From: Somniosus microcephalus
Lineage: Eukaryota
Assembly: GCA_052327205.1 (NCBI GenBank)
Contig: CM126220.1
Span: 48,422,001-48,486,000 of the forward strand
Length of the DNA: 64,000 nt
Direction of reading: 5' to 3'
Positions within the stretch are counted from its first letter, which is position 1; each line of letters opens with the position of its first letter. Shown here one piece after another: positions 4,360 to 52,322 of the stretch. The notes under the pieces were generated by a model. That model was not told the origin of the DNA and ran no database searches. It worked only from the letters and a program-made list of their open reading frames with translations. The translations under genes and the position numbers were made by a program.

Positions 4360-4369
4360 TGGCGACGAG
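4360..4369 (+). promoter_or_regulatory. Primer-binding site, probably tRNA-Ser(GCU)
   Basis: TGGCGACGAG is complementary to the ...CUCGUCGCCA 3' end of vertebrate tRNA-Ser(GCU); the same PBS occurs in elements C and D. Confidence 0.75.
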
Positions 4370-12224: not shown

Positions 12225-12380
12225 GGTGGCGTGTGGGTCCAACAAAAACAGGGTCAAAGCGAAGGATTTTCAGAAAGTTTCGGAAGCAAGGTTGTTGGTG
12301 GCGAGGTGACAAGAATGAGGGAGCAAGTTTCAGAGGACGGGGTGTGGCAGAGCAGAGGGAGCAGGGTACAAGGAGTAACC
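12225..12380 (-). mobile_element. Old L2 LINE ORF2 C-terminal remnant (source of the adjacent minisatellite)
   Basis: Minus strand encodes SDTGLLLVPCSL...PLKLAP...FRNFLKILRFD, resembling the L2 end (RSSNSGLL.IP...LWNSLP...FK.LLKTYLFD) seen at 28430-33050. Confidence 0.6.
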
Positions 12381-14691
12381 CAGTATCAGAGGGGGCAGGG
12401 TACAAGGAGTAACCCGGTATCAGAGGGAGCAGGGTACAAGGAGTAACCACCGGTATCAGAGGAGAGGGAACAAGGGGAGAGGGAACAAGGAGTAACCTGG
12501 TATCAGAGGGAGCAGGGTACAAGGAGTAACCCAGTATCAGAGGAGAGGGAACAAGGAGTAACTCGGTATCAGAGAAGAGGGAACAAGGAGTAACCCCGGC
12601 ATCAGAGGGGAAGGTACAAGGAGTAACCCGGTATCAGAGGAGAGGGAACAAGGAGTAACCCGGTATCAGAGGAGAGGGAACAAGGAGTAACCTGGTATCA
12701 GAGGAGAGGGAACAAGGAGTAACCCCGGTATCAGAGGAGAGGGAACAAGGAGTAACCCCGGTATCAGAGGAGAGGGAACAAGGAGTAACCCCGGTATCAG
12801 AGGAGAGGGAACAAGGAGTAACCCCGGTATCAGAGGAGAGGGAACAAGGAGTAACCCGGTATCAGAGGAGAGGGAACAAGGAGTAACCCGGTATCAGAGG
12901 AGGGGGAACAAGGAGTAACCTGGTATCAGAGAAGAGGGAACAAGGAGTAACCCCGGTATCAGAGGAGAGGGAACAAGGAGTAACCCGGTATCAGAGGAGA
13001 GGGAACAAGGAGTAACCCGGTATCAGAGGAGAGGGAACAAGGAGTAACCCGGTATCAGAGGAAAGGGTACAAGGAGTAACCCGGTATCAGAGGAGAGGGA
13101 ACAAGGAGTAACCCGGTATCAGAGGAGAGGGAACAAGGGGAGAGGGAACAAGGAGTAACCCGGTATCAGAGGAGAGGGAACAAGGAGTAACCCGGTATCA
13201 GAGGAGAGGGAAGAAGGAGTAACCCGGTATCAGAGGAGAGGGAACAAGGAGTAACCCGGTATCAGAGGAGAGGGTACAAGTAGTAACCCTGGTATCAGAG
13301 GAGAGGGAACAAGGAGTAACCCGGTATCAGAGGAGAGGGTACAAGTAGTAACCCTGGTATCAGAGGAGAGGGAACAAGGAGTAACCCGGTATCAGAGGAG
13401 AGGGAACAAGGAGTAACCCCGGTATCAGAGGAGAGGGAACAAGGAGTAACCCGGTATCAGAGGAGAGGGAACAAGGAGTAACCCGGTATCAGAGGAGAGG
13501 GAACAAGGAGTAACCCGGTATCAGAGGAGAGGGAACAAGGAGTAACCCAGTATCAGAGGAGAGGGTACAAGGAGTAACCCCGGTATCAGAGGAGAGGGAA
13601 CAAGGAGTAACCTCGGTATCAGAGGAGAGGGAACAAGGAGTAACCCGGTATCAGAGGAGAGGGAACAAGGAGTAACCCCGGTATCAGAGGAGAGGGAACA
13701 AGGAGTAACCCAGTATCAGAGGAGAGGGTACAAGGAGTAACCCCGGTATCAGAGGAGAGGGAACAAGGAGTAACCCCGGTATCAGAGGAGAGGGAACAAG
13801 GAGTAACCCGGTATCAGAGGAGAGGGAACAAGGGGAGAGGGAACAAGGAGTAACCCGGTATCAGAGGAGAGGGAACAAGGAGTAACCCGGTATCAGAGGA
13901 GAGGGTACAAGGAGTAACCCGGTATCAGAGGAGAGGGAACAAGGAGTAACCCGGTATCAGAGGAGAGGGAACAAGGGGAGAGGGAACAAGGAGTAACCCG
14001 GTATCAGAGGAGAGGGAACAAGGAGTAACCCGGTATCAGAGGAGAGGGAAGAAGGAGTAACCCGGTGTCAGAGGAGAGGGAACAAGGAGTAACCCGGTGT
14101 CAGAGGAGAGGGTACAAGTAGTAACCCTGGTATCAGAGGAGAGGGAACAAGGAGTAACCCGGTATCAGAGGAGAGGGAACAAGGAGTAACCCGGTATCAG
14201 AGGAGAGGGAACAAGGAGTAACCCGATATCAGAGGAGAGGGAACAAGGAGTAACCCGGTATCAGAGGAGAGGGAACAAGGAGTAACCCGGTATCAGAGGA
14301 GAGGGAACAAGGAGTAACCCGGTATCAGAGGAGAGGGAACAAGGAGTAACCCGGTATCAGAGGAGAGGGTACAAGGAGTAACCCCGGTATCAGAGGAGAG
14401 GGAACAAGGAGTAATCCCGGTATCAGAGGAGAGGGAACAAGGAGTAACCCGGTATCGGAGGAGAGGGAACAAGGGGAGAGGGAACAAGGAGTAACCCGGT
14501 ATCAGAGGAGAGGGTACAAGGAGTAACCCGGTATCAGAGGAGACGGTACAAGGAGTAACCCGGTATCAGAGGAGAGGGAACAAGGGGAGAGTGAACAAGG
14601 AGTAACCCGGTATCAGAGGAGAGGGAACAAGGAGTAACCCGGTATCAGAGGAGAGGGTACAAGGAGTAACCCGGTATCAGAGGGAGCAGGG
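12355..14691 (+). repeat. ~32-33 bp minisatellite GGTATCAGAGGAGAGGGAACAAGGAGTAACCC, left part
   Basis: About 70 head-to-tail near-identical units with no unique spacers; occasional 14-bp sub-duplication GGGGAGAGGGAACAA. Confidence 0.97.
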
Positions 14692-14926
14692 TGATGCGCC
14701 ATCAATTACTCAAAAGACTGAGGTTAAGCGAGTAACAACCAGGCTTTTATTAACTAAAGAATGAAGGTCTAGTCTCGAGTGGTCGACCCGTCCAGAATAC
14801 TAAGGGACTGGGAGGTAGTCACTTATATACCTGGAATAGTGGGAGGAGTCAGCCGAGGCATGTCCAGACCTGTACCTAGTGGAATACACATACACATACA
14901 GACAGGTATAACAGTGGTTTACCACA
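14692..14926 (-). repeat. 3' LTR of Gypsy B
   Basis: Direct repeat of 21137-21371; TATA (GGTATATAAG) and AATAAA on the minus strand. Confidence 0.95.
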
Positions 14927-15450
14927 TTCACCCCTTGTTTAATAATGAGTCCGGCGGGGTGAAGTGTATTTAAAAGTTCGTGTATTGGAGTCTCTCCGGA
15001 GGTCTTGTCTGCCGCTGTGATCGACGTGGCGACGGCAGGGGTGGTGGAGCTTCTGGCGTCGCGTCCCGTGTAGGCTGGGGTACTGGAGTGTAGTCCTCGT
15101 GGGTGACGGTCCAAGGCGAGCCGGCTGCTGGGGTTGGATATCGGGCCGTGGGGGGGGTGGCAATGGGTAGTGGGTTACAGTGGTCCCCGAGAGTGTCGTG
15201 GGGGGGGGTGGTAATGGGTAGTGGGTTACAGCGGTCCCCGAGGGTGCGAGGTCTCGTATGGAGACTGTGTCCTCCCGCCCGTCCGGGTACGCAATGTAAG
15301 CGTACTGGGGGTTGGCGTGGAGGAGGTCAACCCTCTCGACCAGGGGGTCCGTTTTATTGGTCCTCACGTGTCTTCTCAGTAGTACCGGCCCTGGGGACGT
15401 CAGCCATGGCGGTAACGCTGTCCCCGATGTGGACTTCCTTGGGAAGACAA

Positions 15451-17360
15451 GGGATATACAAAAATGCATTAGAAATAAAAGAGGGGCTTTTGGCAGTTAC
15501 AAAAGACTAAAGACAGAAGAAGCCCTAGAGGAGTATAAAAAGTGCAGGGGCATACTTAAAAAAGAAATTAGGAGGGCGAGGAGGGGCCATGAAATAACAC
15601 TGGCGAGCAAAATAAAGGAAAATCCTAAGATGCTTTATAAGTATATTAAGGGCAAGAGGATAACCAGGGAAAGGGTAGGGCCCATTAGGGACCAAAGTGT
15701 AGAGCCAGAGGATGTAGGCGGGGTTTTAAATGAATTTTTTGCATCTGTGTTCACTATGGAGAAAGACGATGCAGACATAGAAATCGGGCAAGGGGACTGT
15801 GACATACTTGAACATATTAGCATCGAGAGGGAGGAGGTGCTAGCGGTTTTAGCGGGCCAAAAAGTGGATAAATCCCCAGGCCCGGACGAGATGTATCCCA
15901 GGCTGCTGTGGGAGGCAAGGGAGGAGATTGCAGGGGCTCTGACACTAATTTTCAGAACCTCTCTGGCCACAGGGGATGTACCAGAGGACTGGAGAACAGC
16001 TAACGTAGTACCATTATTCAAGAAGGGTAGCAGGGATAAACCAGGGAATTACAGGCCAGTGAGTCTAACATCTGTGGTGGGGAAATTATTGGAAAAAATT
16101 CTGAGGGACAAAATTAATCTCCACTTGGAGAGGCAAGGATTAATCGGGGATAGTCAGCATGGCTTTGTCAAGGGTAAATCATGTCTAACAAATCTGATCG
16201 AATTTTTCGAGGGGGTGACTAGTGGGGTGGATGAGGGAAATGCTGTGGATGTGGTTTACATGGACTTCAGTAAAGCTTTTGACAAAGTCCCGCATAGGAG
16301 ACTGGTCAAGAAGGTAAGAGCCCATGGGATCCAGGGTGCCTTGGCGCGTTGGATCCTAAACTGGCTGAGTGGCAGGAGGCAGAGGGTGATGGTCGAAGGT
16401 TGCTTTTGTGACTGGAAGCCTGTGTCCAGTGGGGTACCTCAGGGATCGGTGCTGGGTCCCTTATTGTTTGTGATCTACATAAATGATTTGGATGAGAATG
16501 TAAAAGGTATGATCAGTAAGTTCGCAGATGACACGAAAATTGGTGGGGTGGTAAATTGCGAGGAGGAAAGCCTCCGGCTACAGGACGATATAAACGGGTT
16601 GGTCAGATGGGCGGAAAAGTGGCAAATGGAATTTAACCCTGAAAAGTGCGAGGTGATGCATTTTGGACGGACAAATAAGGCAAGGGAATACACAATGAGT
16701 GGTAGGACCCTAGGAAGTACAGAGGGTCAGAGGGACCTTGGTGTACATGTACATAGATCCCTGAAGGCAGCGGAGCAGGTAGATAAGGTGGTTAAAAAGG
16801 CATATGGGATACTTGCCTTCATTAGCCGAGGCATAGAATATAAGAGCAGGGAGGTTATGATGGAGCTGTACAAAACGCTGGTGAGGCCACAGCTGGAGTA
16901 CTGTGTGCAGTTCTGGTCACCTCACTATAGGAAGGATGTGATTGCTTTGGAGAGGGTGCAGAGAAGATTCACCAAGATGTTACCTGGGATGGAGCGCCTC
17001 AGCTATGAAGAGAGGCTGGACAGGCTGGAGTTGTTTTCCTTGGAGCAGAGAAGGCTGAGGGGGGACCTGATTGAGGTGTACAAAATAATGAGGGGCATAG
17101 ATAGGGTAGATAAAGAGGAACTTTTCCCCTTAGTGGGGGGGTCAATAACAAGGGGGCATAGATTCAGGGTAAGGGGCAGGAGATTTAGAGGGGATTTGAG
17201 GAGGAACTTTTTCACCCAGAGGGTGGTTGGAATGTGGAACTCAATGCCTGAAAGGGTGGTGGAGGCAGGAACCCTCACAACATTCAAGAAGCATTTGGAT
17301 GAGCACTTGAAATGCCATTGCATACAAGGCTATGGACCAAATGCTGGAAAATGGGATTAG
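15451..17360 (+). pseudogene. CR1 ORF2 reverse transcriptase fragment (open frame, no endonuclease, no native start)
   Basis: KSPGPD, NYRPVSLTS, DFSKAFDKV, GVPQGSVLGP, KFADDTK; no internal stop over ~636 codons. Confidence 0.93.
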
Positions 17361-17776: not shown

Positions 17777-17978
17777 GTGTGGAGATGCCGGAGTTGGACT
17801 GGGGTGGACAAATGTAAGAAATCACACAACACCAGGTTATAGTCCAACAGCTTTATTTGAAATCACAAGCTTTCGGGGCGCTGCTCCTTCTTCACCTGAA
17901 GAAGGAGCAGCGCCCCGAAAGCTTGTGATTTCAAATAAAGCTGTTGGACTATAACCTGGTGTTGTGTGATTTCTTACA
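17777..17978. mobile_element. Short Penelope-type inverted (foldback) insertion with a ~15-bp flanking duplication
   Basis: Perfect inverted arms 17811-17894 and 17897-17980; TTCAGACATTTAATG at 17762-17776 and 17979-17993; contains CTGAAGA...GAAA. Confidence 0.85.
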
Positions 17979-20900
17979 TTCAGACATTTAATGACTGTGG
18001 CACTGGTCATGTCCGGGCAGGGGATAGCGAACGGGAAATGGGAGTACTCGTCAATGATGTTGAGGAAGTACACATTGCGGTCGGAGGAGGGGAGAGGCCC
18101 TTTAAAATCGACGCTCAGGCGTTCGAAAGGGCGAGTGGCTTTTATCAGGTGGGCTCTGTCTGGTCTATAAAAGTGCGGTTTGCACTCAGCGCAGACTTGG
18201 CAGTTCTTGGTCATGGTCCTGACCTCCTCAATGGAGTAAGGCAGGTTGCGGGCCTTGATGAAGTGGAAGAACCTGGTGACCCCCGGGTGGCAGAGGTCAT
18301 TGTGGAGGGCCCTCAGCCTATCGATCTGCGCACTGGCGCAGGTGCCACGCGATAGGGCATCTGGGGGTTCATTGAGCTTCCCAGGCCGGTACAAGATCTC
18401 GTAATTGTAGGTGGAAAGTTCGATCCTCCACCTCAAGATCTTGTCATTTTTGATTTTGCCCCTCTGCTTGTTGTTGAACATAAAAGCAACTGAACGCTGG
18501 TCAGTGAGCAGGGTAAATCGTTTTCCGGCCAGTTAGTGCCTCCAATGACGCACAGCCTCCACAATAGCCTGGGCCTCCTTCTCGACCGCGGAGTGTCTGG
18601 TCTCCGGGCCCTGGAGGGTTCGTGAGAAGAATGCCACAGGTCTCCCCGCCTGATTAAGGGTGGCGGCCAGAGCGAAGTCGGACGCATCGCTTTCCACCTG
18701 GAAGGGGATGGATTCGTCCACTGCGTGCATGGTGGCTTTGGCAATGTCCTCCTTGATACGGTGGAAGGCCGAGCGGGCCTCTGCCATCAGGGGAAAAGAG
18801 GTGGATTTGATCAGCGGACGGGCTTTGTCTGCATAGTAGGGGACCCACTGGGCGTAGTAGGAAAAAAATCCTAGGCACCTCTTCAGAGCTTTTAGGCAGT
18901 GGGGCAGTGGGAGTTCCATAAGGGGACGCATCCGGTCCGGGTCGGGACCGATGACCCCGTGTTCCACAACACAGCCAAGGATGGCGAGGCGGTCTGTGCG
19001 GAATATGCACTTCTCCTTGTTATATGTCAGGTTCAGGAGTTGGGCGGTGCGGAGGAATTTCTCGAGGTTTGCGTCATGGTCCTGCAAGTCATGGCCGCAG
19101 ATGGTCACATTGTCTAGGTAAGGGAAAGTGGCCTGCAGCGCGTTTTGATCGACCATCCGGTCCATCTCCCTTTGGAAGGCGGAGACCCCGTTGGTAACGC
19201 CAAAGGGAACCCTAAGGAAGTGATAGAGGCGGCCGTTTGCCTCAAAAGCAGTATACTGGCGGTCTTCGGGGCGGATGGGGAGCTGGTGGTACGCTGATTT
19301 CAGGTCAATGGTCGGAAAGACGCGGTACTGCGCGATCTGGTTGACCATGTCAGCTATGCGGGGGAGTGGGTAGGCGTCCAGCAGGGTGTAGCGGTTTATT
19401 GTTTGGCTGTAGTCGATGACCAGGCGTTGTTTCTCGCCGGTCTTAACGACCACAACCTGGGCTCGCCAGGGGCTGGAGCTGCCCTCAATAATCCCCTCCT
19501 TCAGGAGCCGCTCCACTTCAGTTTTGATGAAAATCCTGTCCCCGGCACTGTATCGCCTGCTCTTTGTGGCGATGGGCTTACAGTCGGGGGTGAGGTTAGC
19601 AAACAGTAGCGGGGGTGGGACTCTGAGTGTGGAGAGGTTGCATCTGGTGCGCGGCGGGCAATTTGGAGGCTGCTGGCTGCAGACTGTGAGTGGGGGGAGG
19701 GGGCCACCGTACGCCATCGTAACGCTTTTGAGGTGGCACTGGAAATCCAACCCCAGTAGAACGGCAGCGCAAAGTTGGGGCAGGACCAGGAGTTTAAAAT
19801 TATTGAACACAGTCCCGTCTACTACTAGTGTCACCACGCAGTAGCTGCCAATGTCCGCTGACTGAGACTCGGCGGCCATAGAAATCCGCTGGTGCGCAGG
19901 CAGGACTGGGAGAGAGCAACGCCGCACCGTGTCGGGGTGGATGAAGCTCTCTGTGCTCCCGGAGTCAAAAAGGCAGTTTATTGCATGGCCGTTTACCTTA
20001 ACGTCCATTTTGGACCGAGCTAGTTGGTGCGGTCTCGTTTGGTCCAACGTAACAGAGGCCAGTGTAGGGGTCGGTGTGTCGCTGCGGGTATCAGATGGGG
20101 GGGGGTTGGCAGCCTGCTGCGTCCCGGCTGGTGTCCAAGATGGCGGCGTCCATGATTCCCATGTGGCTGGAGTCGTCCAAGATGGCTGCTGCTGCGGTGG
20201 TTCGCACATGGCTGGGGAGGCCCAAGATGGCGGCCCGCACGGCCCACACGCGGCGCTGTTGGGGGCCCAAGATGGCGGCTCGCACGGCCCACACGCGGCG
20301 CTGCTGGCGTTCGGGGTGGCTTTGGCCTTGCAGATGCTAGCGTAGTGTCCCTTTTTCCCGCAGCCCGAGCAGGTCGCATTCTTCGCCGGGCAGCGCGCTC
20401 TGGGGTGTTTGGCCTGGCCACAGAAGTAGCATTTCTGGCCTTGGGATACTGCTGTCTGGCTTTGGGACACTGCTGCAGTGGTTGGGCCGTTGTTGGGCTG
20501 TGGCTGGGGTGGCACGGTGCTATGGGGCTGTCCTACCGTGTCCCAGGTTGTCGTTCCCCGCGGCGTCCACGGTGCAGAGGACTAGGCATCCATGCCCCGG
20601 TAGGCTGCGTCCAGCGTTAGTGCGATTTCGGAGGCTTTGTCGAGGGTGAGGTCACTCTGCTCCAGCAGTCGCTGTCGGGTGTAGTTGGACCTGTGGCCCG
20701 CTACGAAGGCATCCCGGATCAGTTCCTCCGTGTACTTAGTGGACGTTACCACCTTACACCCACAGGCCCGGCCAAGCACGGACAGTGCTTGGAGGTATTC
20801 CTCAGTCGATTCCCCAGGTTGTTGCTTGCGACTCCCCAGGAGGTGCCTGGCGTAAACTTCGTTCACAGGGTGCGTGTACTGGGTCTTGAGGAGCTGGAGG

Positions 20901-21136
20901 GCGGCTGTGTACGAGGTCGCGTCCCGGATGACTGAGTACACTCGGTGGTTCACCTTGGAGATCAGGACAGACAGTTTGTTCGCATCCGTTACGACCGCAG
21001 TGGAGGCAGTCAGGAATGCCTCGAAGCACATGAGCCAGTGAGCAAACTTGGTGGAAGCGTCCGCTTCCCGACTGTCCAGGTCCAGGCATGCTGGTGTGAG
21101 GATCTTCTCCATTATAAAAAATTTAGTTAATAAAAT

Positions 21137-21371
21137 TGATGCGCCATCAATTACTCAAAAGACTGAGGTTAAGCGAGTAACAACCAAGCTTTTATTAACT
21201 AAAGAATGAAGGTCTAGTCTCGAGTGGTCGACCCGTCCAGAATACTAAGGGACTGGGAGGTAGTCACTTATATACCTGGAATAGTGGGAGGAGTCAGCTG
21301 AGGCATGTCCAGACCTGTACCTAGTGGAATACACATACACATACAGACAGGTATAACAGTGGTTTACCACA
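21137..21371 (-). repeat. 5' LTR of Gypsy B
   Basis: Direct repeat of 14692-14926; gag ATG lies only ~25 nt downstream. Confidence 0.95.
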
Positions 21372-22038
21372 CAGGGTACAAGGAGTAACCCGGTATCAGA
21401 GGAGAGGGAACAAGGAGTAACCCGGTATCAGAGGAGAGGGAACAAGGAGTAACCCGATATCAGAAGAGAGGGAACAAGGAGTAACCCGGTATCAGAGGAG
21501 AGGGAACAAGGAGTAACCCGGTATCAGAGGAGAGGGAACAAGGAGTAACCCGGTATCAGAAGAGAGGGAACAAGGAGTAACCCGGTATCAGAGGAGAGGG
21601 AACAAGGAGTAACCCGGTATCAGAGGGAGCAGGGTACAAGGAGTAACCCTGGTATCAGAGGAGAGGGAACAAGGAGTAACCCGGTATCAGAGGAGAGGGA
21701 ACAAGGAGTAACCCGGTATCAGAGGGAGCAGGGTACAAGGAGTAACCCTGGTATCAGAGGAGAGGGAACAAGGAGTAACCCGGTATCAGAAGAGAGGGAA
21801 CAAGGAGTAACCCGGTATCAGAAGAGAGGGAACAAGGAGTAACCCGGTATCAGAGGAGAGGGAACAAGGAGTAACCCGGTATCAGAGGAGAGGGAACAAG
21901 GAGTAACCCCGGTATCAGAGGGAGCAGGGTACAAGGAGTAACCCCGGTATCAGAGGAGAGGGAACAAGGAGTAACCCAGTATCAGAGGAGAGGGAACAAG
22001 GGGAGAGGGAACAAGGAGTAACCCGGTATCAGAGGAGA
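21372..22038 (+). repeat. ~32-bp minisatellite, right part
   Basis: About 20 further units; register continues across the CAGGG TSD. Confidence 0.97.
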
Positions 22039-23065: not shown

Positions 23066-25520
23066 GTGGTTGATCCTTTCTCCCGCTTTCAGAATTCTCG
23101 TTCTACCTGGACCCCTCTCTCTGGCCTCTTACCCTCTCTAGATCTTTTCATTGCAAACTGCCACCGTGACATCGGCCGTCTCCATTTCTCTGCTCCCCTC
23201 ATTCACTCCAACCTACCTCCCTCTGAACTTGCAGCACTCCATTCTCTCAGATCCAACCCCGACATTGTCATTAAACCTGCTGACAAGGGTGGTGCTGTTG
23301 TTGTTTGGCGAACCGACATCTACCTAGCGGAAGCTGAACGCCAACTCTCCGACACCTCCTCCTATCTCCACCTGGACCATGACCACACTACCGAACATCA
23401 AGCCACCGTTTCCAAGACTGTCACTGTCTCATCTCCTCTGGAGATCTTCCCCCCACAGCCGCCAACCTCATAGTTCTCCAACCCTGCACAGCCCGCTTCT
23501 ACCTCCTTCCCAAGATCCACAAACAGGACTGCCCTGGTAGACCCATCATTTCAGCCTGTTCTTGCCCCATGGAACTTATCTCTTCCTATCTCAACTCTAT
23601 TTTTTCTCCCCTTGTCCAGTCTCTTCCCACCTACATGCGCGATTCTTCCGACGCCCTCCGCCACTTTAACAGTTTCCAGTTTCCCGGCCCCAACCACCTC
23701 CTTTTCACTATGGACGTACAATCCCTCTACACCTCCAACCCCCACCAGGATGGCCTGAGGGCGCTCCGCTTCTTCCTTGAACAGAGGCCCAACCAGTCCC
23801 CATTCACCACCACCCTCCTCCGCCTGGCTGAACTTGTTCTCACATTGAACAACTTCTCCTTTGACTCCACTCATTTCCTCCAAATCAAAGGTGTTGCTAT
23901 GGGTACCCGCATGGGTCCTAGCTATGCCTGTCTTTTCATGGGATATGTGGAACACCCTTTCTTCCAGTCCTACTCGGGTCCCCTCCCTCACCTCTTTTTC
24001 AAGTACATTGATGACTGTATCGGTGCTGCCTCCTGCTCTCGCCCTGAACTAGAAAATGTCATTCACTTTGTTTCCAATTTCCACCTTTCCTGCACCTTCA
24101 CATGGTCCATCTCTGACTCTTCCCTTCCCTTCCTCGACTTCTCCATCTCCATCTCTGGGGATAGGTTATTGACTAACATTCACTACAAGCCCACTGACTC
24201 CCACAGCTACCTGGACTACACTTCCTCCCACCCCACCTCCTGTAAGGACTCTATTCCAAACTCCCAGTTTCTCCGTCTCTGCTGCATCTGCTCTGACGAT
24301 GCCACCTTCCATACCACTGCTTCCGACATGTCTTCCTTTTTCCTCAACTGAGGATTCCCCTCTACTGTGGTTGATACGGCCCTCGACCGTGTCCGTTCTA
24401 TCTCCCGCACTTCTGCCCTCACCCCTGCCCCTCCCTCCCGGAACCACGATAGGGTTCTCTTTGTCCTCACCTTTCACCCCACTAGCCTCCACATTCAACG
24501 GCTCATCCTCCGCCATTTCCACCACCTCCAGCATGATCCCACCACCAAATGCATCTTCCCCTCATCTCCCCTTTCAGCATTCCGTAGGGACCGCTCCCTC
24601 CGCGACACCCTAGTCCACTCCTCTACCACCCCCAGCACCCCTTCCCCTTCGTCCGGCACCTTCCCGTGCAAGTGCAGGAGATGCAACACATGCCCTTATA
24701 CCTCCCCCCTTCCCACTGTCCAGGGCCCCAAACACCCCTTCCAGGTGAAACAGCGATTTACTTGTACTTCTTGCAATTTAGTATACTTTATTCACTGCTC
24801 ACGATGTGGTCTCCTCTACATTGGGGAGACCAAATGCAGATTGGGTGACCGCTTTGCGGAACACCTCCATTCAGTCCGTGAGGGTGACCCTGAGCTCCCG
24901 GTGGCCTGTCACTTTAATTCTCCGCTTCACTCCCACTCAGGTCTCACCGTCCTTGGCCTCTTGCATTGCTCCACGGAAGCTCAGCGTAAGCTCGAGGAAC
25001 AGCACCTCATCTTTTGATTAGGCACTCTACAGCCCTCTGGACTCAACATAGAGTTCAACAATTTCAGATCATAACCTCGGCTCCGATCACATATATATAT
25101 TTTCTTCATTTTTTTTATCCACAATTTTTGTTTGGCATTTTTCTTCCCTCCCACATGGCAGCTGTTCTTCATTCTGCCAATGCAATTCACACCCCATCTA
25201 GAGCCATCCTTTATTCCTTAACCTGTCCCATTACCACCTCCTCTCACCTTGAATATCTCTTAATGTCTCTCAATGTCTCTTAATCTCTCTTGCTTTCTAT
25301 CCTATCACTAACCTTCCCTTTTGTTCTTTCATCCCCTCCCCCTTTTCCCAGCCCCTAAACCTGCTTTCCATTTCCTGCTTTTTTCCAGTTCTGACAAAAG
25401 GCCATCGACCTGAAACGTTAACTCTATTTCTCCCTCCACGGATGTTGCCTGGCCTGCTGAGTTTTTCCAGCGTTTTCTGTTGTTATTTCGGATTTCCAGC
25501 ATCCGCAGTATTTTGCTATT
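23066..25520 (+). mobile_element. Penelope-like retroelement (RT plus GIY-YIG endonuclease), degraded
   Basis: IKPADKGGAVVV, TMDVQSLYT, GVAMGTRMGPSYACLFMG, KYIDDC, HYKPTDSHSYL, LVYFIHCSRCGLLYIGET; pLTR-type end ttctgacaaaaggccatcgacctgaaacgttaactc at ~25390. Confidence 0.93.
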
Positions 25521-28151: not shown

Positions 28152-28333
28152 AGGGCGAATTTTAACCTAACCCACTCATTGGGAAACTAATGGGATCGGG
28201 TGCCACACTGGTTTTACAACCCGCCCGATTTTATTCTCCATTGAAGTGACTGGAGAGTAATATTGGGCGGGGAGTAAAACTGGTGTTCCACCCAATCCCA
28301 TAGGTTTCCTGCCCAGTGAGTTAGGTTAAAATG
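28152..28333. mobile_element. Palindromic MITE
   Basis: attttaacctaac...gttaggttaaaat termini, with further internal inverted blocks (cccgccc/gggcggg, ctcca/tggag). Confidence 0.75.
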
Positions 28334-28536
28334 AACTATTTTGTTTTCTCATCCTTGTTTTCACATCCCTCCATGGCCTCGCCCTCCCTTATCTCTATAA
28401 CCTCCTCCAGCCCTACAACCCTCCGAGATCTCTGTGCTCTTCAATTCTGGCCTCTTGCGCATCCCCGATTTGAATCGCTCCATCATTGGCGGCCGTGCCT
28501 TCAGCTGCTTTGGCCCTAATCTCTGGAACTCCCTTC

Positions 28537-28790
28537 TGTTAAGTCTGTGGGTTGTATTATAAATAATCACAGACTCCACTGTTAACAAAATAAAACACGT
28601 CTTTACTATTCAGAGGCTCGGGCGATTCCTGATCTAGTTAACGTATCACAACCCTTATATACTGGTGTGGTCACTATCGGTATTACAGTATACATGAGCC
28701 AATAAATAGTGCCACCCTAAAGTAGTGCTCTTAAAGGCGAACGGTCACATTCTATAGTTCCCTTAAAGGTAAACGGTTACATACACAACA
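28537..28790 (-). repeat. 3' LTR of element C
   Basis: 28629-28790 is identical to the 5' LTR; 28537-28628 is divergent. Confidence 0.93.
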
Positions 28791-29178
28791 CTCCTCCCTT
28801 CCTAGCTTATTACTTACAGAATCCCGTTAAACATACAATCTTCAATTTTATATAAACAGTTTGCAGATATACTCTCGATGGAGTCAACGTCATATAACAA
28901 TTTACAGATATACTCTCGATGGAGTCAACGTCATATAACTTCATGTTTAACATAACATAATAACATATATAACTTCATGTCAAAACAGATCACAGATTCA
29001 GTCTCTGTGGAAAACAGTTCATAGATTCAGTCTCTGTGGTGTAGTCGGTTCACATTGCTGGAGTGACTCATTCAATAGTCCTTCCATGGGTTTAACAGTT
29101 TGAACTTCCGAACTGAATTGGCTCCGTTCGGAGGGACCACGTGTGTGATCTGGTAGAGGTAATAATGGTTCAGATGGG

Positions 29179-31884
29179 TCATCTTCTGTTTCGACTTTTC
29201 CTTTTCTGCTTCTTGGAGACTCTCTGGGCTCCACTGTCAGCTGCCAGCTGCATGCGCAGTTCCTCCTTCTCTTCCTCCTTTTTCCGTAGTAGAGCCACCT
29301 TCTCCCGATGTTCCGTAGACTTTCGGTGCTCCTCCATGATTTCTGTATGGTGGGAGTCGAAGTTACAAGTTGGGCAGGACAGGACATAGTAATATTCGGA
29401 GTCGTCCTGAGCTAGGCCAGCGAGAGGGTCTTCTATGTCCTCCCTACCCAGCTGGACGTCAGCCAGCTTTTGTTCCAAATCCAGACATCTTTCCTGAAGA
29501 GACTTCTTCACGTGTTCCGCTTCCTCTAACTTTTTCTGGGCTTTCAGCAAGTTGTTTACTAATGACCTCATTTGTGATTTTAATACTTCAACTTCCTTTG
29601 GAGATTGATTGATCGGACTATTCAATCCCTCTACCGGAGCAGTTGTTTCAGCGTTCTGTTGTTCAACCTTGACATGAGTCAGCGTACTTTTGGTATCTAA
29701 GGGTTGCTCTGCTGCCATCTTCTCAGTCTGTGTTGCAACCTCGGCTATTTCAATAACTTTTGAGAGCTCCAAACCCTTCTCCTCTGACGATTTAAGCTCA
29801 TGTTCATGGCCCATTCTTACGGTCTCTGTGTTTCTTACAGTTCCCTTTTCTTCCACTGAAAAGATTTCCAGTTGCATCTGTTCTTCAAGTCGTTGGACCT
29901 CGGCCATTGCCGCTTCATATTTATTTTGTGTTTCCTTTAATAATTTAACGAGTTCTTGGACATCCTGTATTCCCTGTTCTGGTATGTCTTCCACCACTAA
30001 TTTTTTTCCTATGGATTTAATCCCTAACGATGAGTCAGCCTTGGCCTGAAGCTCATCAAACATTTCCTGCAGACTTTGTAATTCTTGCTTATGGTCAACC
30101 TTTAGTCGTTCATGTTCAACCTTTAGTTGCTCATATGCTTTCACTAACACGAGCTTTTCGGAAGTTGCCAAGTTAACCTCTTCCAGGATTGTAGTCCGAG
30201 CCTGTTCATACTGTTCTTTCAACTCGTTACACTCTGCTTGCAACAAGTCGTAGAGGTGAACTGGAATACCATCCTGACTTCTTGAAGATTCCTCTTCCTT
30301 TGGATCGTTCTGTGTATATTCTAGTTCCTGAACAGCCTCAGGGAGATGTGATTGGTACTTGGCCACGATGGCTCTATGGTCGCTCTCTGCTTGAGCGAGC
30401 TGTCTCTGTTGTCTTTCCAGGGACTCCCATTCGGTGTCCCAGAACTTTTTCACCTTTTCCATCTCTTGTAGGAGACGGGCACTCAACTGTTCTAATTGTC
30501 GTTGTACTTTGACATAACGTTGAGTTCTAGCCCGGTGTTCCTCCGTAATGCATATGTCTGTAGCTTGAACAGACTCAGAATTCTCTGTCTTTATGCACGC
30601 CATCGATTTCCCAACCTTAGTCCGTGAGTTCATGTTAATCTTGTTTTTCATACATAAGCTGGACTTATCGTCTTCCGGCTCGGAGTCTGAGCTGCTTGTC
30701 TGCACCGAGTCCTCACTCGTCATTGCTTGTCGGTAGTGCCATTCCATGTCTATTTTCTTGATCCACTCCCGTCCCAGAAGTGGTGGTCCTCCCTCAGGTA
30801 GTACGTACAGATACATTCGTGGGTGTTCTTTACCCCTATCTCTCACCTTGACTCGTATTTTTCCCAGGGGGTATACATGATGCCCCGTGTATGTCTGTAA
30901 TACGAATTTGGTATTTCTTAAGGGTATGTGAGAGAATAGCCGGTGATAGTCCTTTTGGTTGATGACGGATACAGCTGATCCCGTGTCCAGCTCCATTCGT
31001 ACTTGGACTCCCGCTATTTTTAGTGTGACCCAGATCAACTGTAGATCAGTTACTTTACCCACATGGTGGATTCTCAGACTATCCAGCTCCTGGCTGTTTG
31101 GGTCTGAGTCTGAATTTTGTTCGTCTGAACTCTTTTCAGCCACCTGATGCACCTTGTTGTACTTTCCTTGTGGTGGTGGCTTCCTTTGCTTGTTGGTCTT
31201 CTTTCCGGACCTGCATACCTTCGCGATGTGACCCAGTTTGCCACATTTCCTGCACTCTTGGTTCTTAAACCAGCACTGATTCTGGTCGTGCGTTGTCTTT
31301 CCACAACGGTAGCATTTGGGAGTGCTTGCTGTAATTTGGTCCACCCCGAGTGCCGCCGCCTTTAGCTGCATTTCCGCCGTCCCTTTCGCTGCGGCTTCGT
31401 GCGATGAAGCTATGAGGACAGCCCTGTCCAGTGTGAGGTCGTTTTCTTCCAGAAGTCGCTTCTGCGTTCCTTCTTTGGCCAAGCCGCATACGAACTTGTC
31501 CCGCAGCGCCTCTGTCAAATTCCCTCCAAACTGGCAGTATTTCGCTAGCTTACGCAGTTCGACTAAGTATTCCGCATTGCTTTCATCTTGCCTCTGGGTT
31601 CTGGCGTAAAATTTAAATCGTTCAGCCAGCATCAACGGTGTGGGGTTCAAGTGATCCTTCAACACTGTTACGATCTCTTCGAAGGTCTGGTCCACTGGTT
31701 TAACTGGTGCTATTAGATGTTTCAAAAGCCCGTATGTTTTTGCTCCCATCGAATTTAACAAAGTTATTGCCTTGTTGTCATCCTCAATTTCGTTGGCTAC
31801 GCAATATATTTCTATGCGTTCCACATACGTGGCCCAGTCTTCTATTTCTGCATTAAAGTCATTAATATTTCCTCGCTTAGGCAT
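29179..31884 (-). CDS. Gag-CCHC-protease fused to a ~500-aa coiled-coil and zinc-finger cargo (901 aa from ATG 31884)
   Basis: Uninterrupted ORF; MPKRGNINDF Gag homologous to elements A and D; CYRCGKTTHDQNQC; MELDTGSA; after GREWIKKIDMEW the sequence becomes E/K/Q/L-rich heptads, then CPTC-x12-H-x5-H. Confidence 0.88.
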   Translation of the reverse strand: MPKRGNINDFNAEIEDWATYVERIEIYCVANEIEDDNKAITLLNSMGAKTYGLLKHLIAPVKPVDQTFEEIVTVLKDHLNPTPLMLAERFKFYARTQRQDESNAEYLVELRKLAKYCQFGGNLTEALRDKFVCGLAKEGTQKRLLEENDLTLDRAVLIASSHEAAAKGTAEMQLKAAALGVDQITASTPKCYRCGKTTHDQNQCWFKNQECRKCGKLGHIAKVCRSGKKTNKQRKPPPQGKYNKVHQVAEKSSDEQNSDSDPNSQELDSLRIHHVGKVTDLQLIWVTLKIAGVQVRMELDTGSAVSVINQKDYHRLFSHIPLRNTKFVLQTYTGHHVYPLGKIRVKVRDRGKEHPRMYLYVLPEGGPPLLGREWIKKIDMEWHYRQAMTSEDSVQTSSSDSEPEDDKSSLCMKNKINMNSRTKVGKSMACIKTENSESVQATDICITEEHRARTQRYVKVQRQLEQLSARLLQEMEKVKKFWDTEWESLERQQRQLAQAESDHRAIVAKYQSHLPEAVQELEYTQNDPKEEESSRSQDGIPVHLYDLLQAECNELKEQYEQARTTILEEVNLATSEKLVLVKAYEQLKVEHERLKVDHKQELQSLQEMFDELQAKADSSLGIKSIGKKLVVEDIPEQGIQDVQELVKLLKETQNKYEAAMAEVQRLEEQMQLEIFSVEEKGTVRNTETVRMGHEHELKSSEEKGLELSKVIEIAEVATQTEKMAAEQPLDTKSTLTHVKVEQQNAETTAPVEGLNSPINQSPKEVEVLKSQMRSLVNNLLKAQKKLEEAEHVKKSLQERCLDLEQKLADVQLGREDIEDPLAGLAQDDSEYYYVLSCPTCNFDSHHTEIMEEHRKSTEHREKVALLRKKEEEKEELRMQLAADSGAQRVSKKQKRKSRNRR

Positions 31885-32724
31885 CTTCTTCTCTTTTTGA
31901 GAACAGTACAAGTATTACTTTACTTATTATTAATTTTCTTCTCTCTTCTTGAGAACACACCAGCCTTTCTGAAAAATCTTATTACTTTTCTGAAATTCTT
32001 AATAATTTCCAAGATGGCGGTTTCCCGCTTCTTCCTTCTTCTTCAGCGGTTTTCCCCGAAAAATGGCAGCTTTCCCGCGCTTCTCGCTCTCCCCGCCCAC
32101 TTCAATGGCGGTTTTCCCGCGCTTGGCGGTCTTCACCCGGTCCCCCGACGCCGTCTGTCAGCCCGAGTGCGGCCCTTATCTATAATGCGATCGCTGGATC
32201 GCGAAGCGGCTGCCGGCCCTTTATCTGTAGATCCGATCGCTCTCGCGGCTCTCGGCCCTTATCTGGAGATGCGATCGCTGGCTTGCAACGCCTCCCGCTC
32301 GGCTCTGGCTCCCCCGCTCGCGCGGCTCTCGGCTCTGACACTCTCGCGCCTACTCGCAGGCTCAGCGCTTCGTGGCAGCGGTTGCTGCACGGCTTCTCAC
32401 ATTGCCCGCGGTCCGGCTGTCACCCGACGCCGTTGGACCCGAATGCTTTGCCCTTCTCCTCCAAATACTTCTACCCCGTTTTTTTTTTTAAATTTATTTG
32501 TTTTAACTACTCACAGTCTCTTCGGCCGCCTTGTTTTAGGCTGATTGGCTCGCTCAAGATGTGGTAGCAGGGTAATCTGTGCCTGTTGCTGCCGCAGCTT
32601 TGCTGTTAATCTTCCAGCTTCCAGTAAGTACTATCCTTTTAGTAGACGGAGCCTCGTGTTTTCTTTTTGAAGCTCTCTGCTACTGGTTAGTCTTGCCGCA
32701 GGGTACGATCGGACTCGTCGCCAC

Positions 32725-32978
32725 TGTAAAGTCTGTAGGTTGTGCAGTAAATAACTTCAGAGACTTTAGAAGTACAAACAAAACAGGTCTTTACTATTCG
32801 GTGGTCTGGGCGATTTCTGATCTAGTTAACGTATCACAACCCTTATATACTGGTGTGGTCACTATCGGTATTACAGTATACATGAGCCAATAAATAGTGC
32901 CACCCTAAAGTAGTGCTCTTAAAGGCGAACGGTCACATTCTATAGTTCCCTTAAAGGTAAACGGTTACATACACAACA
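32725..32978 (-). repeat. 5' LTR of element C
   Basis: Adjacent to the PBS; ends TGTTGTGTATGTA...GACTTTACA (element sense) are shared with element D. Confidence 0.93.
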
Positions 32979-35900
32979 CCTTCCTAAACCTCTGCCTCTC
33001 CACTTCTCTCTCTTCCTTTAAGACGCTCCTTAAAACCTACCTCTTTGACCAAGCTTTTGGTCATCTGTCCTAATATCTCCTTATATGGCACAATGTCAAA
33101 TTTTGTTAGATAACGCTCCTGTGAAGCGCTATATAAATGCAAGCTGTAGTTGTTGTTGTTGTGTATGTATGTATTAATATATAAGTAATACGCCTTTCCT
33201 AACTTGGCTTGCTAAATCTTGATACAAATTTTAGAATTGTCTTGGATTGTAGTATTATTAGATTTAAACTCAAGCCCAGATAAAGGTTTTCTATCCCTCC
33301 GGGCATTTTATATATCTGGCAATAATGGGCCAAGTGATGAGATTTAATAAAGCAACAATTTTGCCAAACGTTTGCATGCTCGAGAGTGATGAATGATATT
33401 CCACTTTGGAAGCAAGTTCCTTTGTTAAAATGACAGCAATGTTGGATTAATTGCATCATGTGCTCTCCAAGAACTGTAATTCTGTATTTAGGGGCCAATG
33501 GGATTTAATGGCTACACTGTGTAACACTAACAGGAATTGCTTCATAATTCAGAGACTTTAGGTTTATATGTTGCTAATGTCTGACATGTGAACCTGCCTT
33601 TGTTATGAATGTTGTCCGTTCTCAGCCAGGATATTTGGTGGAGTGTTTCATGACTATGGAGAATCTTGCTGCATGGGGAAAAACTAAAGGTAAGTCCATT
33701 TACTCATTTCACTTTCCATTTCTGGCATTTGTGCAGAGGTCCAGGGTTTGGAGCTCAACTATTGCCCACGCTGCTCAAAGAAGCTGTGTGAGATAAGCAG
33801 TTTCATGTGTTGTGCTGTGTTGTGTGGTTAGGGGAGAGAAGACACAGAAATTTTAAAAAACCACATAAATCAAATGATGTTATCAGGGATCGATGTACAT
33901 ATTTAACGAAGGACCCCACTGATTTTCAGCAGGTATCCCTCTCACCTGCTCAGAAGAGCAAATTAAAACCGAAGACTGGTGAAATGAGAGGGTCGTCAGC
34001 GGGTAAGTCCCCTGGGTCTTTATAACTGCCTGCCCACCTGGTTTCCGTAAAGAAGATGGTGGTGGTTATTCTGTCAATCACTTCATTTTTCTTGTTAAGT
34101 CTTCACCGATAGAGGATCCCAATCAGTTTTTATAAAGAGGAAGTAGCAGTTTTATACTAGATCATCATAAGGCAGTCCTAATGGGGAACGATAACTTATG
34201 TCTTAACCCCTTTTACATGCAGGAACAAAACCACTAACCTCTTGACTTTAAGCAACTAAGGGATTTGACGTCTACAGCATTTATTTGAAAATGGTAAATT
34301 CAGAAGCTTTATCAGAATCTTTTAGAATCAAGACCAAGTCATTTTACCAACTTAACAAACAAAAGGAGGTGGAGGAGGATGGGTGGGGAGACCACAATAA
34401 ACTGACAACACAAACTCTATTATGAAATTATTAACTAAATATGGACCAAACATCTTCTTCAGATTAAATGGATTTATTCTAATGAGTCCAAGAAATAAAT
34501 AACATCTGTTCTTTCAATGACAAATTCTAGTAAAATTAATTCCTTATAATAATATAAAATTAATAACATATAAAGCAGAAAAATAGTACAGAAAGTATTT
34601 TATAATGCTTTTTATGTTCTTTAACTGCAGATCCAACTTCGGATTCAGCACAAATTCTCATTGGCCTGTGTCACACCATCGTAATTCTCATCTTGATGAA
34701 CCTGGATGAACAGCAAGGGCCCATAGTGCAGAACACCACCAGGGCACTGTATCTTGGATTCAACAAAATGAGGATGCAAAGCAAGAAAGATCAATTCCAT
34801 TCAGTGCCGCTGCCATGCCAATGTTAACACTCCTGCTTAGTCACTCACCGATTTGAAATACAGATGCTCTGGATAAATTGTGCAGCATGTTTCTCGAACG
34901 ATGGATGTTCTCAAATGATTAAATATAAGATCACAAGGATTTTATGACTTCCACAGTATGGGAAAGGAGAAACAGGATAGGGGGAGAGAAAAAGAGGAGA
35001 TTCGAACTACCCCACCCCCATCCAGTATTGTTACACCCATGACAGACTTGGGGTCAATGTGCGATTGTGGATGCTACTCGCATATTGTTGGTCTGTAACA
35101 ATTTGCAGTGGGGTCTTTTACACACAATTTGTGTTGTGAAGAATGTTCCTTTGCAACCTTTGTTTCCAATGTTGGCTGCTGGCTAAGGAGCCCAAGGACC
35201 AAGATCTCAGGAGCCCAGCCTTTAAAAGAACCTATGATTCAGGAACATAGATCCCATGTGCAATCAGTGGAGACAGTCTCCTCTCATATGGTGCGGGTGA
35301 TGGGAAAGTTGGAGAAATCTACAACTTGTATTTGCAATACAATGCAGGAGGGATGGCATAATAGCTAATGGCATAGTTAGCTGCAACTTCTGATGAAGTA
35401 TTTGCATAATATTTTTGATAATACAGAAAGACAGAGATAATCCCATCTTTAATATACAATCAGCATATTAAGTTGGCATAGACATCAGCGCAGTTACTTA
35501 AAAACTGCAGACTTGGGATGGGGTTGATTGGTGCATTGAGTCAGCACACTTATTTTTTTGCTTCAGGTAGTTGGATTAGAATCAAACCCAGACTGGTGGG
35601 CTGAAAGTCTGCTCTCTCTATCCTGGCTGTAGGAGGCGATAGGTTTGCAAAGTCTCAAACCAGTTCCTAGTGCGTATGCATCCACCGCATAAAATTACCC
35701 ATATTTCAGCATAAATTGGCACCAAAATGGCAATTTAACCCCGTTCACAAGAATGTTGATGCAGTACAGGGCACCGTAATAGATTAAACAACAGTGAGCG
35801 GAGTAAAGGGAGCATTAGTCTGAACTGGGTCATGCTGTACCTGATTTGAGAATGCTCCATGTTGATACTGGATACCAAAAGAAGTGGTTAATTCCCGAGC

Positions 35901-46520: not shown

Positions 46521-48238
46521 AGGTGTTTCAATAATGGGTAGGTTATGCTGAAATGAACATTGTTTAAAGCTACATTGTCCTCTGAGTGAGTCTTCATTCG
46601 TCAACTAGGCAGCCTCCAATTTCAAAAAAATAAAACTGGTAGTCTGAAATAAAAGTGAAAAAATGATGAAAATACACAGCTGGTTCATCTGTAAGGAGAA
46701 ATTTGAGGTTAACATTCCAACGCAGCTGGAAACTGAAAGATATACAAGCCCCTCCAGAGGAGTGATCAAAATAGAGAGATAGCAGAAATGTCAGCAATCC
46801 AAACTTTTGACTTTTGACTTTTACCTGTCACATAGGGGGGAATTTTTCAGGGGGTCAGCAGGGGCATTTGGAGGCGGGTCAGCTGGGAAAAAAATTTTTG
46901 ACAGTGGGTATGGAGCCCGCTGTCAACCCGTATTCACGCTAGTCTCCCAGATGTTGGGTCTGTCATCGTTGAACAGACCTGACACCAAGCGGCGAGGGAG
47001 GCAATTTACATCATTAGAGAGATTATAAAGAGGCAATTAACTAGTATTTTATGCTTAGCTTTAGATTTTTAGAGTTTGCCAACGGCTTCCCCACAGCTAG
47101 GGGATCACGTCAGGTAAGGAGGTCGGGTGTTGTGTCAGCATGTGATGATTTACTAACTTGACAGCTGCAAATGGTCTATAAAAGCTCCCATTTCATAGGT
47201 GTTCACTCTCCAAGATGAGAAGCTGTTTCTTACTGCATTTGGAAGACACAGTGCGCTTTATGCAGGTTGCAAGTGTTTGGAGCAAACTCTCTATCCAGTG
47301 TCACCTCATTGGAACAACCTCTCTCACCACTGACAGATCGCTTCTGTCATCTCAACCTCACCTGCCAGCTATTCCATCAGCATCGTTGCCCTTGAAAAAA
47401 TCTCACCTTGATCCTCAGAATCCCACCACGATCAGCCCCAACACCAGCAGCACCAGCAGCACCATGAAAAAAACACCAACCTTCTCCGCAATCAGCTGGT
47501 GCTGAACAGGACCGAGGGCATCAGCACCTGACCACATTGCTGCCTTGGAGGCCAGGGATGGCCTCACCATGGCCAGATTTACTTCACTTGACGCTGTACA
47601 CCCTGGCTGCCATATGATGAGCCAGGTTGGCACCACTCCACACTAACACCATAAAGCATCTCTACAATGCCCAAACCATTCTTTTCACACTCATGGCCAT
47701 TGCGGGGGATACTGTTATATCTCACCATTCACTGCAACTCACTAAGCCACTTCCAAAGGTGCACACAAATCTGTCCAAGAATGCAAATTGTTGACAATAA
47801 AGATTCCAATGTTTGACAGCACATTAACAGAAACTTCACATGAACATTAGCTAAAACACACAAGTGCCTACCCTTGTGTACTGTTAGTTGGTATGATTGG
47901 ACTATGATGAGGGTGAGTGTGAGGGGCGGATAGTGAGATGTGGAAGTTGTAAAGTCCGCGCCTCAATAATACACGGACTTCGGGAGAACAGTTTAACAGG
48001 TACTTTACTGAACAAGAGGCAGCTTGAAACTGAAACTACAGAAGCCTGCTAGGGCCTTTTATACAGGGGTGGTCACTGCCGGTACTGCAGTCTAAGACCA
48101 GTTATTCCCTTAAAGGTACATACACAACAATTCCTCCCCTTTTAGATAAACAGTACATAACATTCATTTAACAACTAAATAATAACTAATTACAATTACA
48201 ATTTTCTCAGTAATATATACATCAACTGAAATAGTCAT

Positions 48239-51200: not shown

Positions 51201-52192
51201 GTGTATGTCTTCAATACAATGGACGTGTCCTTTAAGGGTATGTGTGAGAATAGCCGCTCATAGTCTCGTCGATTCATGACAGTTAGGGCTGATCCTGTGT
51301 CCAATTCCATCTTCACTGGGGACCCTGCTATCATGAGGGTGACCCAAATGGTTCGGTGATCTTCTTTTGCGATCACATTGTGTAACTTTAAACAACTTAG
51401 TCGCCTGCTCCCGGAGTCCTTATCACTCTCCTGATCTTCTGAACTACTATCTGTCAGTTTCTTTACTTTCCTATACTGTTCCTTAGTAGTTCTTGTCGTG
51501 TTGGTCTTCTTTCCCGACCTGCAGACTCTTGTTATATGTCCCATTTTCCCGCATTGCCTGCATATTTTGTCTTTAAACCAGCAGTCCTTCTGCTCATGGG
51601 TTGTTCTGCCGCAGCGATAGCACTTTCCGGCTCCATACGCCATTTCGTTAGCGCTGTATTCTTGTGGTTTCTGTTGTATTTCCGCAGCTCCCCGTGCTGC
51701 TGCTTCGTAGGATACTGCCACGCTGAAAGCCTGTTGTAGCGTCAGGTCCTTTTTTGAAAGTAGTCGTCTCTGGGTTCCTTCACTCTGGAGCCCGCAGACA
51801 AACTTATCCCGTAAGGTGTCTGCCAGTCCTGCTCCGAACTGGCACTGCTTCGATAACTTGCGTAGTTCCGTAAGATAGTCAACATTGCTCTCATCTTTGT
51901 GCTGGTTTCTTTTATGGAACTTGAATCTTTCTGCTATCAGCAGTGGTGTAGGGCTTAGATGTTCCTGTAAGATATGAACAATCTCCTCAAAACTTTTCTC
52001 CATTGGTTTAGCTGGGGTAATTAAATTCCGCAATAGGCCGTACGTACTCGCACCCATCAGATTTAATAATACCGACGCCCTCTTTCCATCAGCCACCTCA
52101 TTTGCCTTGCAGTACACTTCAATTCTTTCCACATACGTGGTCCATTCTTCTACCTCATTGTCAAAAGCAGTGATACTGCCACTTTTCGGCAT
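48239..52192 (-). pseudogene. Gypsy D gag-pol polyprotein, nearly intact (one in-frame TGA at 48650; RT motif YLDN)
   Basis: Gag, 2x CCHC, DTGS, RT, RNase H, HHCC-DDE integrase; the downstream ORF 48577-48239 (GPLMYTV...RKPPQRLNL) is in the same frame. Confidence 0.93.
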
Positions 52193-52204
52193 CTTGGGCA
52201 TTTT

Positions 52205-52322
52205 AAAATGGCGCCTCCCGTGCTTTTGCTTCTTCCCCAATGGAATAAAATGGCGCCTCCCGCGCTTTTGCTTCTTCCCCAATGGGATAAAATGGCGCCT
52301 CCCGCACTTTTGCTTCTTCCCC
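52205..52322. repeat. Three ~43-bp tandem repeats in the Gypsy D leader
   Basis: aaaatggcgcctcccg(c/t)(g/a)cttttgcttcttcccc x3; two related copies in the element A leader (4960-5035). Confidence 0.9.

Follow-up and report, generated by a model that had tools for sequence, protein, structure and literature searches.

Why does a retroelement carry part of a host gene for optineurin (OPTN), and is that part kept for anything that optineurin does? The question is raised by a stretch of 64,000 nucleotides from Somniosus microcephalus (GenBank assembly GCA_052327205.1, contig CM126220.1, positions 48,422,001 to 48,486,000), called the window here, in which a 4.4-kb long terminal repeat (LTR) element with host-derived cargo lies on the minus strand. 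A sequence-only reading of the window had pointed out a segment resembling an optineurin coiled coil, had placed it as retroelement cargo and had speculated that it could act as a decoy or trafficking adaptor. The likeness and the setting are borne out. The piece was captured from a spliced mRNA, it belongs to an in-frame mosaic of host sequences that has been amplified, and purifying selection acts on Gag and protease while the cargo is nearly neutral and the frame is retained. We think it probable, by a modest measure, that the optineurin residues are transduced filler inside a selected frame.

An optineurin piece from spliced mRNA

The flagged peptide of 44 residues corresponds to residues 773-816 of a 911-codon frame (P0001; window 29179-31914, minus strand) and lies at window 29467-29598 on that strand. 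A database search with the flagged region found 4 proteins among 74 candidates, all of them shark optineurins (best E 8.6e-28, 74% identity), and the comparison with chondrichthyan OPTN that had been proposed as a check therefore gives significant matches. The peptide aligns to sawshark OPTN (P0004) without gaps, with 34 of 44 residues identical. The match is longer than had been claimed, since residues 704-827 of P0001, a piece of 124 codons, align with sawshark OPTN 253-384 (90 of 132 identical, 68%, E 3e-44).

At the DNA level the piece matches the genome's own OPTN exons at 24/31, 157/171, 101/116 and 48/54 bases (77-92% per exon). The exons meet exactly at the host splice sites, between window positions 29776 and 29775, 29605 and 29604, and 29489 and 29488. 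Four host exons are joined and the introns are absent, and therefore the piece is derived from spliced mRNA. Coiled coils match one another weakly, and a search of the PDB gave such matches alone, but the E value of 3e-44, the identity of each exon and the joints at host splice sites refute a chance likeness between coiled coils, to which we give practically no probability. Searches of PDB sequences with the whole cargo, the OPTN segment and the zinc finger that follows it gave nothing significant and no optineurin; for the OPTN segment this is because the solved OPTN pieces cover other parts of the protein.

Older copies of the element carry more of the donor, OPTN 131-428, with six exons and five joints. 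They are 96-99% identical to the host per exon, except for the exon with an 18-base deletion. The window copy has the same deletion, which points to one OPTN capture for the clan. A family search of the genome found one OPTN gene, at about 85.87-85.91 Mb of G000:C17, and one NEMO-like gene. The host OPTN exons as assembled (L034:4780-5400) differ from the element copies by two inserted single bases and, close by, two changed bases. The OPTN proteins of other sharks agree with the element reading there, and the assembled spliced host frame shifts. An assembly error is likely, but it may also be a real lesion in the sole OPTN gene found.

The setting of the piece as retroelement cargo stands as well, as it lies inside a Gag-protease-cargo frame between paired LTRs, with about 510 residues of cargo after the protease. 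The element has the features of a Ty3/Gypsy LTR element, namely paired LTRs, a target-site duplication, a primer site, a polypurine tract, and a Gag with CCHC knuckles followed by an aspartic protease; the Pfam matches of Gag and protease in P0001 are slightly below cut-off. A domain search of P0001 gave no reverse transcriptase (RT), RNase H, integrase or env, so the element is not an autonomous Ty3/Gypsy element with its own Pol.

What selection keeps

Selection was analysed with codon models that give separate rates to shared and tip branches. The sample consisted of copies taken in positional order, the window copy and three old ones; stops were masked, identical rows were merged and branch lengths were fixed from a nucleotide tree; recombination and CpG effects lie outside the model. 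Thirty copies found by protein similarity, and hence picked for few amino-acid changes, were kept out of these tests, except for three that were used as relatives.

The ratio of nonsynonymous to synonymous rates (dN/dS) is 0.14-0.15 for the capsid and 0.22-0.25 for the protease (p<1e-18). It is 0.80-0.87 for the OPTN core (111 codons), 1.0-1.14 for upstream OPTN and 0.84-0.96 for STK10, another host-derived part of the cargo, and none of these differs from 1. In 78 copies (58 distinct) the flagged OPTN helix gave 1.04 on shared branches (95% range 0.60-1.88), its heptad core 0.78 (0.33-1.91) and the zinc finger 0.88. Purifying selection on the retained OPTN residues was thus not detected in the flagged helix or in the linker (0.67, 0.41-1.12). 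The sequence-only reading had named neutral decay among copies as evidence against itself, and neutrality at the amino-acid level is what the helix and the core display. Pairwise values of 0.3-0.6 for the OPTN core, measured against one old copy, were set aside; the tree-based value with a fitted transition bias is the 0.80-0.87 given above, equal to that of the tips.

It is the open frame, the zinc ligands and the basic tail that selection keeps, and not the OPTN residues. Two stops are found on shared branches against 20.3 expected, and 9 against 14.2 on the tips; with the tips as control, 2 of 11 stops on shared branches gives p=0.007. None of the 4 zinc ligands changed on shared branches, compared to 16 of 19 other finger positions (p=0.004), and the basic C-terminal tail is kept in 63 of the 65 copies where it is readable, although these finger and tail tests were picked after the data had been inspected. 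The OPTN piece is not decaying as a pseudogene, as the frame through it stays open.

Could the fragment nevertheless bind host optineurin or its partners and so shield or route the particles? Solved OPTN complexes place the TBK1 site at OPTN 29-106, the Rab8 site at 144-178, UBAN at 504-591 and the zinc finger at 636-667 (roles partly from PMC12651866). The older copies, with OPTN 131-428, include the Rab8-binding stretch and the LC3 motif, which is intact in 23 of the 30 best-scoring copies, a sample biased towards similarity. The OPTN core is almost always retained and the clan is transcribed. However, the window piece (253-384) lacks the TBK1 site, the Rab8 site, the LC3 motif, UBAN and the zinc finger. 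Of 67 sampled copies, 45 lack the LC3 motif, 12 have it intact and 10 have it in changed form, and dN/dS is about 1 in the part that holds it. The TBK1-binding N-terminal coiled coil (OPTN 29-106) is in none of the copies examined, and UBAN and the C-terminal ubiquitin-binding finger were not captured, the captured range reaching OPTN 428 at most in pairwise alignments. The mapped sites already count largely against binding. With these parts missing from the window piece and its helix at neutrality, the decoy or adaptor role that had been proposed fares poorly and is considered very improbable.

The cargo may instead act as a generic coiled-coil module that replaces RT and integrase as a dimerising partner and activates the embedded protease or aids co-assembly with helper Gag-Pol. 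Any long helix would suffice; the sequence would drift, helicity would be kept and coiled coils would be recaptured repeatedly. Four of the five donors contributed coiled-coil pieces, and a single-sequence model of the cargo has five long helices, disorder and no strands (mean predicted local distance difference test score, pLDDT, 60). Helix breakers are scarce in the two retained helices, where 2 gains of Pro or Gly, one of them seen in the old copies, are found against 13.5 expected. A leucine zipper placed behind the HIV-1 protease enhances Gag cleavage, with conformation outweighing sequence, but particle yield fell under the same effect (PMC3291649). The heptad a and d positions show no detectable constraint, prolines have been fixed in another OPTN helix, and the deficit of helix breakers over all four helices is not significant against the control (p=0.19). 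In a simulation, in-frame 8-base words shared with the existing cargo were 1.8-3.4 times more numerous in coiled-coil mRNAs than in globular domains from the same proteins, a bias possibly overstated as codon usage was taken from the OPTN exons. Part of the coiled-coil bias can therefore be explained without selection. A module of this kind is considered unlikely, but it is not a negligible candidate.

A role at the RNA level has also been considered, in which the OPTN stretch would be preserved for its RNA: it might camouflage the element, so that silencing becomes costly to the host, or might have been adopted as a new packaging or export signal. The core is retained while its amino acids change freely, and a conflict model for captured fragments has been put forward in maize, although the same study found no copy-number gain (10.1101/777037). 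In the element, total substitutions in the OPTN core are not slower than in the STK10 piece (internal tree length 0.39 vs 0.43). Young subfamilies have diverged from the host sequence: the window's subfamily and one other large subfamily share 9-12 21-mers with the host, compared to 455 for an old copy. Mostly sense RNA is seen in the clearly stranded run. This role is judged improbable.

Several observations weigh against regarding the optineurin residues as filler. The linker value of 0.67 (0.41-1.12) and that of one OPTN helix, 0.50 (0.24-1.02), allow mild constraint. Small groups of copies transposed while carrying a stop, which together with the late choice of the tail and finger tests bears on the selected frame. 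The Pro and Gly deficit in the two retained helices keeps p=0.02-0.09 once scaled to the linker control, which is itself low (5 vs 8.9 expected), and the whole cargo is either helix or disorder. When copies were sampled through an independent tail motif, 29 of 30 had the OPTN core (8 of the 9 new ones), whereas the pieces flanking the core were lost or exchanged on several occasions; such stability would not be required of pure filler. A broader proposal takes up the helical character of the cargo. The element would be a vertebrate retrotransposon parasite that exchanged its Pol for a coiled-coil spacer, interchangeable and free in sequence, which it took from host mRNAs time and again and which leads to a captured RNA-binding finger and basic tail. 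This is tentative and we think it rather unlikely. If true, protease activation or co-assembly with helper Gag-Pol would depend on a helical spacer, and the element would select a physical property of host proteins, not their function.

Origin of the mosaic and its spread

In the explanation that we favour, transduced filler in a selected frame, part of a spliced host optineurin mRNA would have entered a Ty3/Gypsy-type LTR element while it was being reverse-transcribed, possibly by template switching within the particle. OPTN and STK10 pieces would have replaced RT, RNase H and most of integrase, and pieces of a zinc-finger gene, an ANKRD24-family gene and EVI5 would have come later. The element would still make Gag and protease and would be copied in trans by related Pol-bearing elements; we infer this helper dependence because the LTR ends and primer site match those of Pol-bearing elements. 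Selection would keep the frame open from Gag to the C-terminal zinc finger and basic tail, or would act against an early stop. Read-through may most likely serve an RNA-binding or nuclear-import tail that succeeded the integrase tail.

STK10, OPTN, an ANKRD24/ankycorbin-family gene and a zinc-finger gene all contribute to the cargo mosaic, joined by EVI5 in sister copies. STK10 gave three pieces, which in an old copy are 93%, 84% and 85% identical to sawshark STK10. The two pieces ahead of the ANKRD24-family part are trimmed and diverged in the window's subfamily, and the third (donor 307-388) is in frame in older copies. The kinase donor was first taken as SLK and was replaced by STK10. At L045:1240-2830 the STK10 pieces are permuted (385-478, 616-685, OPTN, 307-388) with the same few residues at entry and exit, an order that fits repeated switching or the capture of a circular RNA. 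The EVI5 coiled-coil pieces sit between two ANKRD24-family pieces in a sister subfamily (L106, L111, L119, L124). A more diverged copy, L172, has another ANKRD24-like piece joined to OPTN, with a brief stretch in another frame before the frame is restored.

Donor splicing was checked for OPTN and the zinc-finger gene. For the latter, the splice-acceptor pattern matched one genomic site, 95% identical to the least diverged copy, with the next exon downstream, and the one exon joint seen indicates a spliced source. The first half of the finger was not found within the 30 kb upstream of this site (L183). We presume that the donor is DNAJC21. A DNAJC21 family search matched other exons, presumably resembling DNAJC2, and the finger exon was absent from the 60 kb behind them.

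The ends of the frame also differ among copies. Old copies follow Pol slightly beyond the protease, then continue into STK10 and end in a basic integrase-like tail. One intermediate copy has the zinc finger continuing into this older tail, and later copies end in a new basic tail from the donor of the finger. Host pieces replace internal coding sequence between the LTRs, as in LTR-mediated transduction, and motif counts attest further rounds of copying. Short word overlaps are seen at the STK10/OPTN borders (protein level) and at one joint (DNA), a description that covers few donor DNAs. The synonymous distance to the old copy is 1.0-1.5 for the capsid and 0.15-0.28 for the OPTN core in four subfamilies, and therefore the cargo has moved onto different Gag backbones.

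Counts of exact motif matches, which are lower bounds, give at least 4,625 matches in the genome for a motif spanning a spliced exon joint (control 0), at least 7,850 for the tail motif and at least 373 for a motif of the window's subfamily. The best 40 matches to the window cargo are 99-100% identical. In 17 of 40 fetched loci both LTRs were found by script; they differ by 0-4 mismatches, and the 5-bp duplication matches in 16 of the 17. The clan is recently active, given these cargo identities and LTR mismatches. Among 40 full-length loci sampled in order of position, 19 keep the frame open from Gag to the tail, and so do 23 of the 29 best-matching copies of the window's subfamily. Layouts vary in the first 66 junction matches on contig 1: the long OPTN piece is found in 24 of them, one kind of deletion in 18 and another in 13, the window layout in 7 and the EVI5 layout in 4.

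The process itself, LTR-mediated retroposition, is known, and the nearest case is maize Bs1; here it is at an unusual scale in a vertebrate. As described in PMC5131818 and PMC13317346, Bs1 is an LTR element with pieces of three host genes, spliced and joined into a chimeric frame. In both cases a single LTR element has taken up several host fragments in spliced form and has one chimeric frame. The shark element differs in that its host is a vertebrate, its donors number five or more, its recent copies run to thousands and its cargo has been swapped between subfamilies, and in that purifying selection is strong on Gag and protease but leaves the cargo to drift. In the animal retrocopies of Tan et al. 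2016 (PMC5131818), partial mRNAs from several parents likewise replace internal retrotransposon coding sequence, with short shared words at switch points, further copying rounds and sense transcription. Those retrocopies are described as occupying a handful of loci per genome, whereas the shark chimera forms a large clan of repeats in which the Gag-protease-cargo frame is maintained.

A shark genome preprint (10.1101/2024.09.09.611499) has described intronless multi-exon OPTN copies beside LINE (long interspersed nuclear element) or LTR repeats and counts single-exon OPTN copies as duplicated genes or retrogenes; the comparison is by description and may concern another species or element. STK10, EVI5 and DNAJC21 are absent from its main text, and the parts consulted are silent on a Gag fusion, copy number or a selection test. 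In the portion of the literature that a search covered, no description of a Gag-protease-OPTN clan turned up. Host optineurin is the direct source of the element piece, which is a fifth of the protein and without the mapped binding sites. Transducing retroviruses offer another comparison: in their gag-onc fusions, spliced host sequence stands in frame behind gag, propagation is helper-dependent, and the captured protein works and is selected. The shark element, in contrast, has no env and its captured sequence is not selected.

These results matter for annotation, as intronless pieces of OPTN, STK10, EVI5 and ANKRD24-like sequence, which number in the thousands and have long open frames and RNA support, can be mistaken for host gene duplications. 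Neutral drift of selfish-element cargo also bears on adaptive stories about shark 'retrogenes'. The clan is a natural series for vertebrate exon shuffling, with datable captures, deletions and Gag swaps across thousands of young copies. What does a Pol-less element require behind its protease? This question is made testable, and if it requires no more than a frame that stays open as far as a basic tail, or a coiled coil of whatever kind, there would be a general lesson on single-frame Ty3/Gypsy assembly.

Layout, transcription and neighbouring elements

Features of the element at window 28532-32983, listed in the direction of its transcription
Feature	Position in window	Strand	Remarks
5-bp target-site duplication, upstream copy	32979..32983	-	identical 5 bases on either flank
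5' LTR	32725..32978	-	254 bp, TG...CA
Primer-binding site	32714..32723	-	same 10 bases as Pol-bearing elements in window (4360, 52747)
Single open frame Gag-protease-cargo	29179..31884	-	901 aa from first Met (P0001 residues 11-911)
Gag: capsid region and two CCHC knuckles	31210..31884	-	capsid dN/dS 0.14-0.15
Aspartic protease, DTG intact	30742..31038	-	dN/dS 0.22-0.25
Host STK10, two joined pieces	30406..30717	-	about 385-478, acidic linker; 616-685, PKK coiled coil; borders approximate
ANKRD24/ankycorbin-family gene, two pieces	29797..30405	-	donor 1011-1047 then 465-646, order swapped; borders approximate
Optineurin piece (OPTN 253-384)	29434..29805	-	parts of four spliced exons; contains flagged peptide 29467-29598
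C2H2 (jaz-type) zinc finger, charged helix and basic tail	29197..29427	-	spliced host gene, two donor exons at G000:C1 (loci L183, L186)
Third STK10 piece, remnant (donor 307-388)	29030..29200	-	mostly past stop here; borders approximate
Polypurine tract	28791..28800	-	sequence
3' LTR	28537..28790	-	254 bp; final ~50 bases unlike 5' LTR
5-bp target-site duplication, downstream copy	28532..28536	-	identical 5 bases on either flank

The LTRs of the window copy are 90% alike overall. They differ in the last ~50 bases (28537-28590 vs 32725-32780), and the target duplication still matches. This looks like recombination or conversion, because two LTR-end types are present within the clan. The primer-binding site is presumably of the tRNA-Ser type; no tRNA matching it was found within the window. 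From its single frame, primer site and 5-bp duplication, the element may belong to the Mag clade.

Four runs were mapped to 28300-33200 at 92% likeness; the reads are pooled from many copies, and organism A may differ from the window's species. RNA run X21 covers the element, and over the flagged segment its first mates favour the plus strand by 692 to 36, a pattern that in most stranded libraries means sense RNA. Run X22 is less one-sided (229 vs 142). Read depth over the subfamily-specific ANKRD24 part is 33-67. Run X6, from organism C, a relative with which the host OPTN region has a quarter of its words in common, gave depth in 8 of 30 element bins (55% of the run read, 92% likeness). The clan seems to be confined to a narrower lineage, because organism C shows almost no depth inside the element.

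Two Pol-bearing Gypsy elements lie in the window, at about 4360-8900 (plus strand) and 47940-52940 (minus strand). They are 82-87% alike and both are broken by stops. Both have the same 10-base primer site as the element described here, and the one at 47940-52940 also has its first 11 LTR bases; the pair is a candidate helper family. The Gag-protease of the element is 50% identical to that of a neighbour with RT, RNase H and integrase. A further Gypsy-type element at 17837-20581 (minus strand) retains parts of protease, RT, RNase H and integrase, their frames broken, and an 84-base perfect inverted repeat lies at 17811-17980. The RT frames without Gypsy domains at 15300-17360 and 23383-24351, both on the plus strand, are probably LINE pieces. 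A purine-rich tandem array with units of 32-34 bases, interrupted by inserted elements, occupies about 12300-14900 and 21100-21400.

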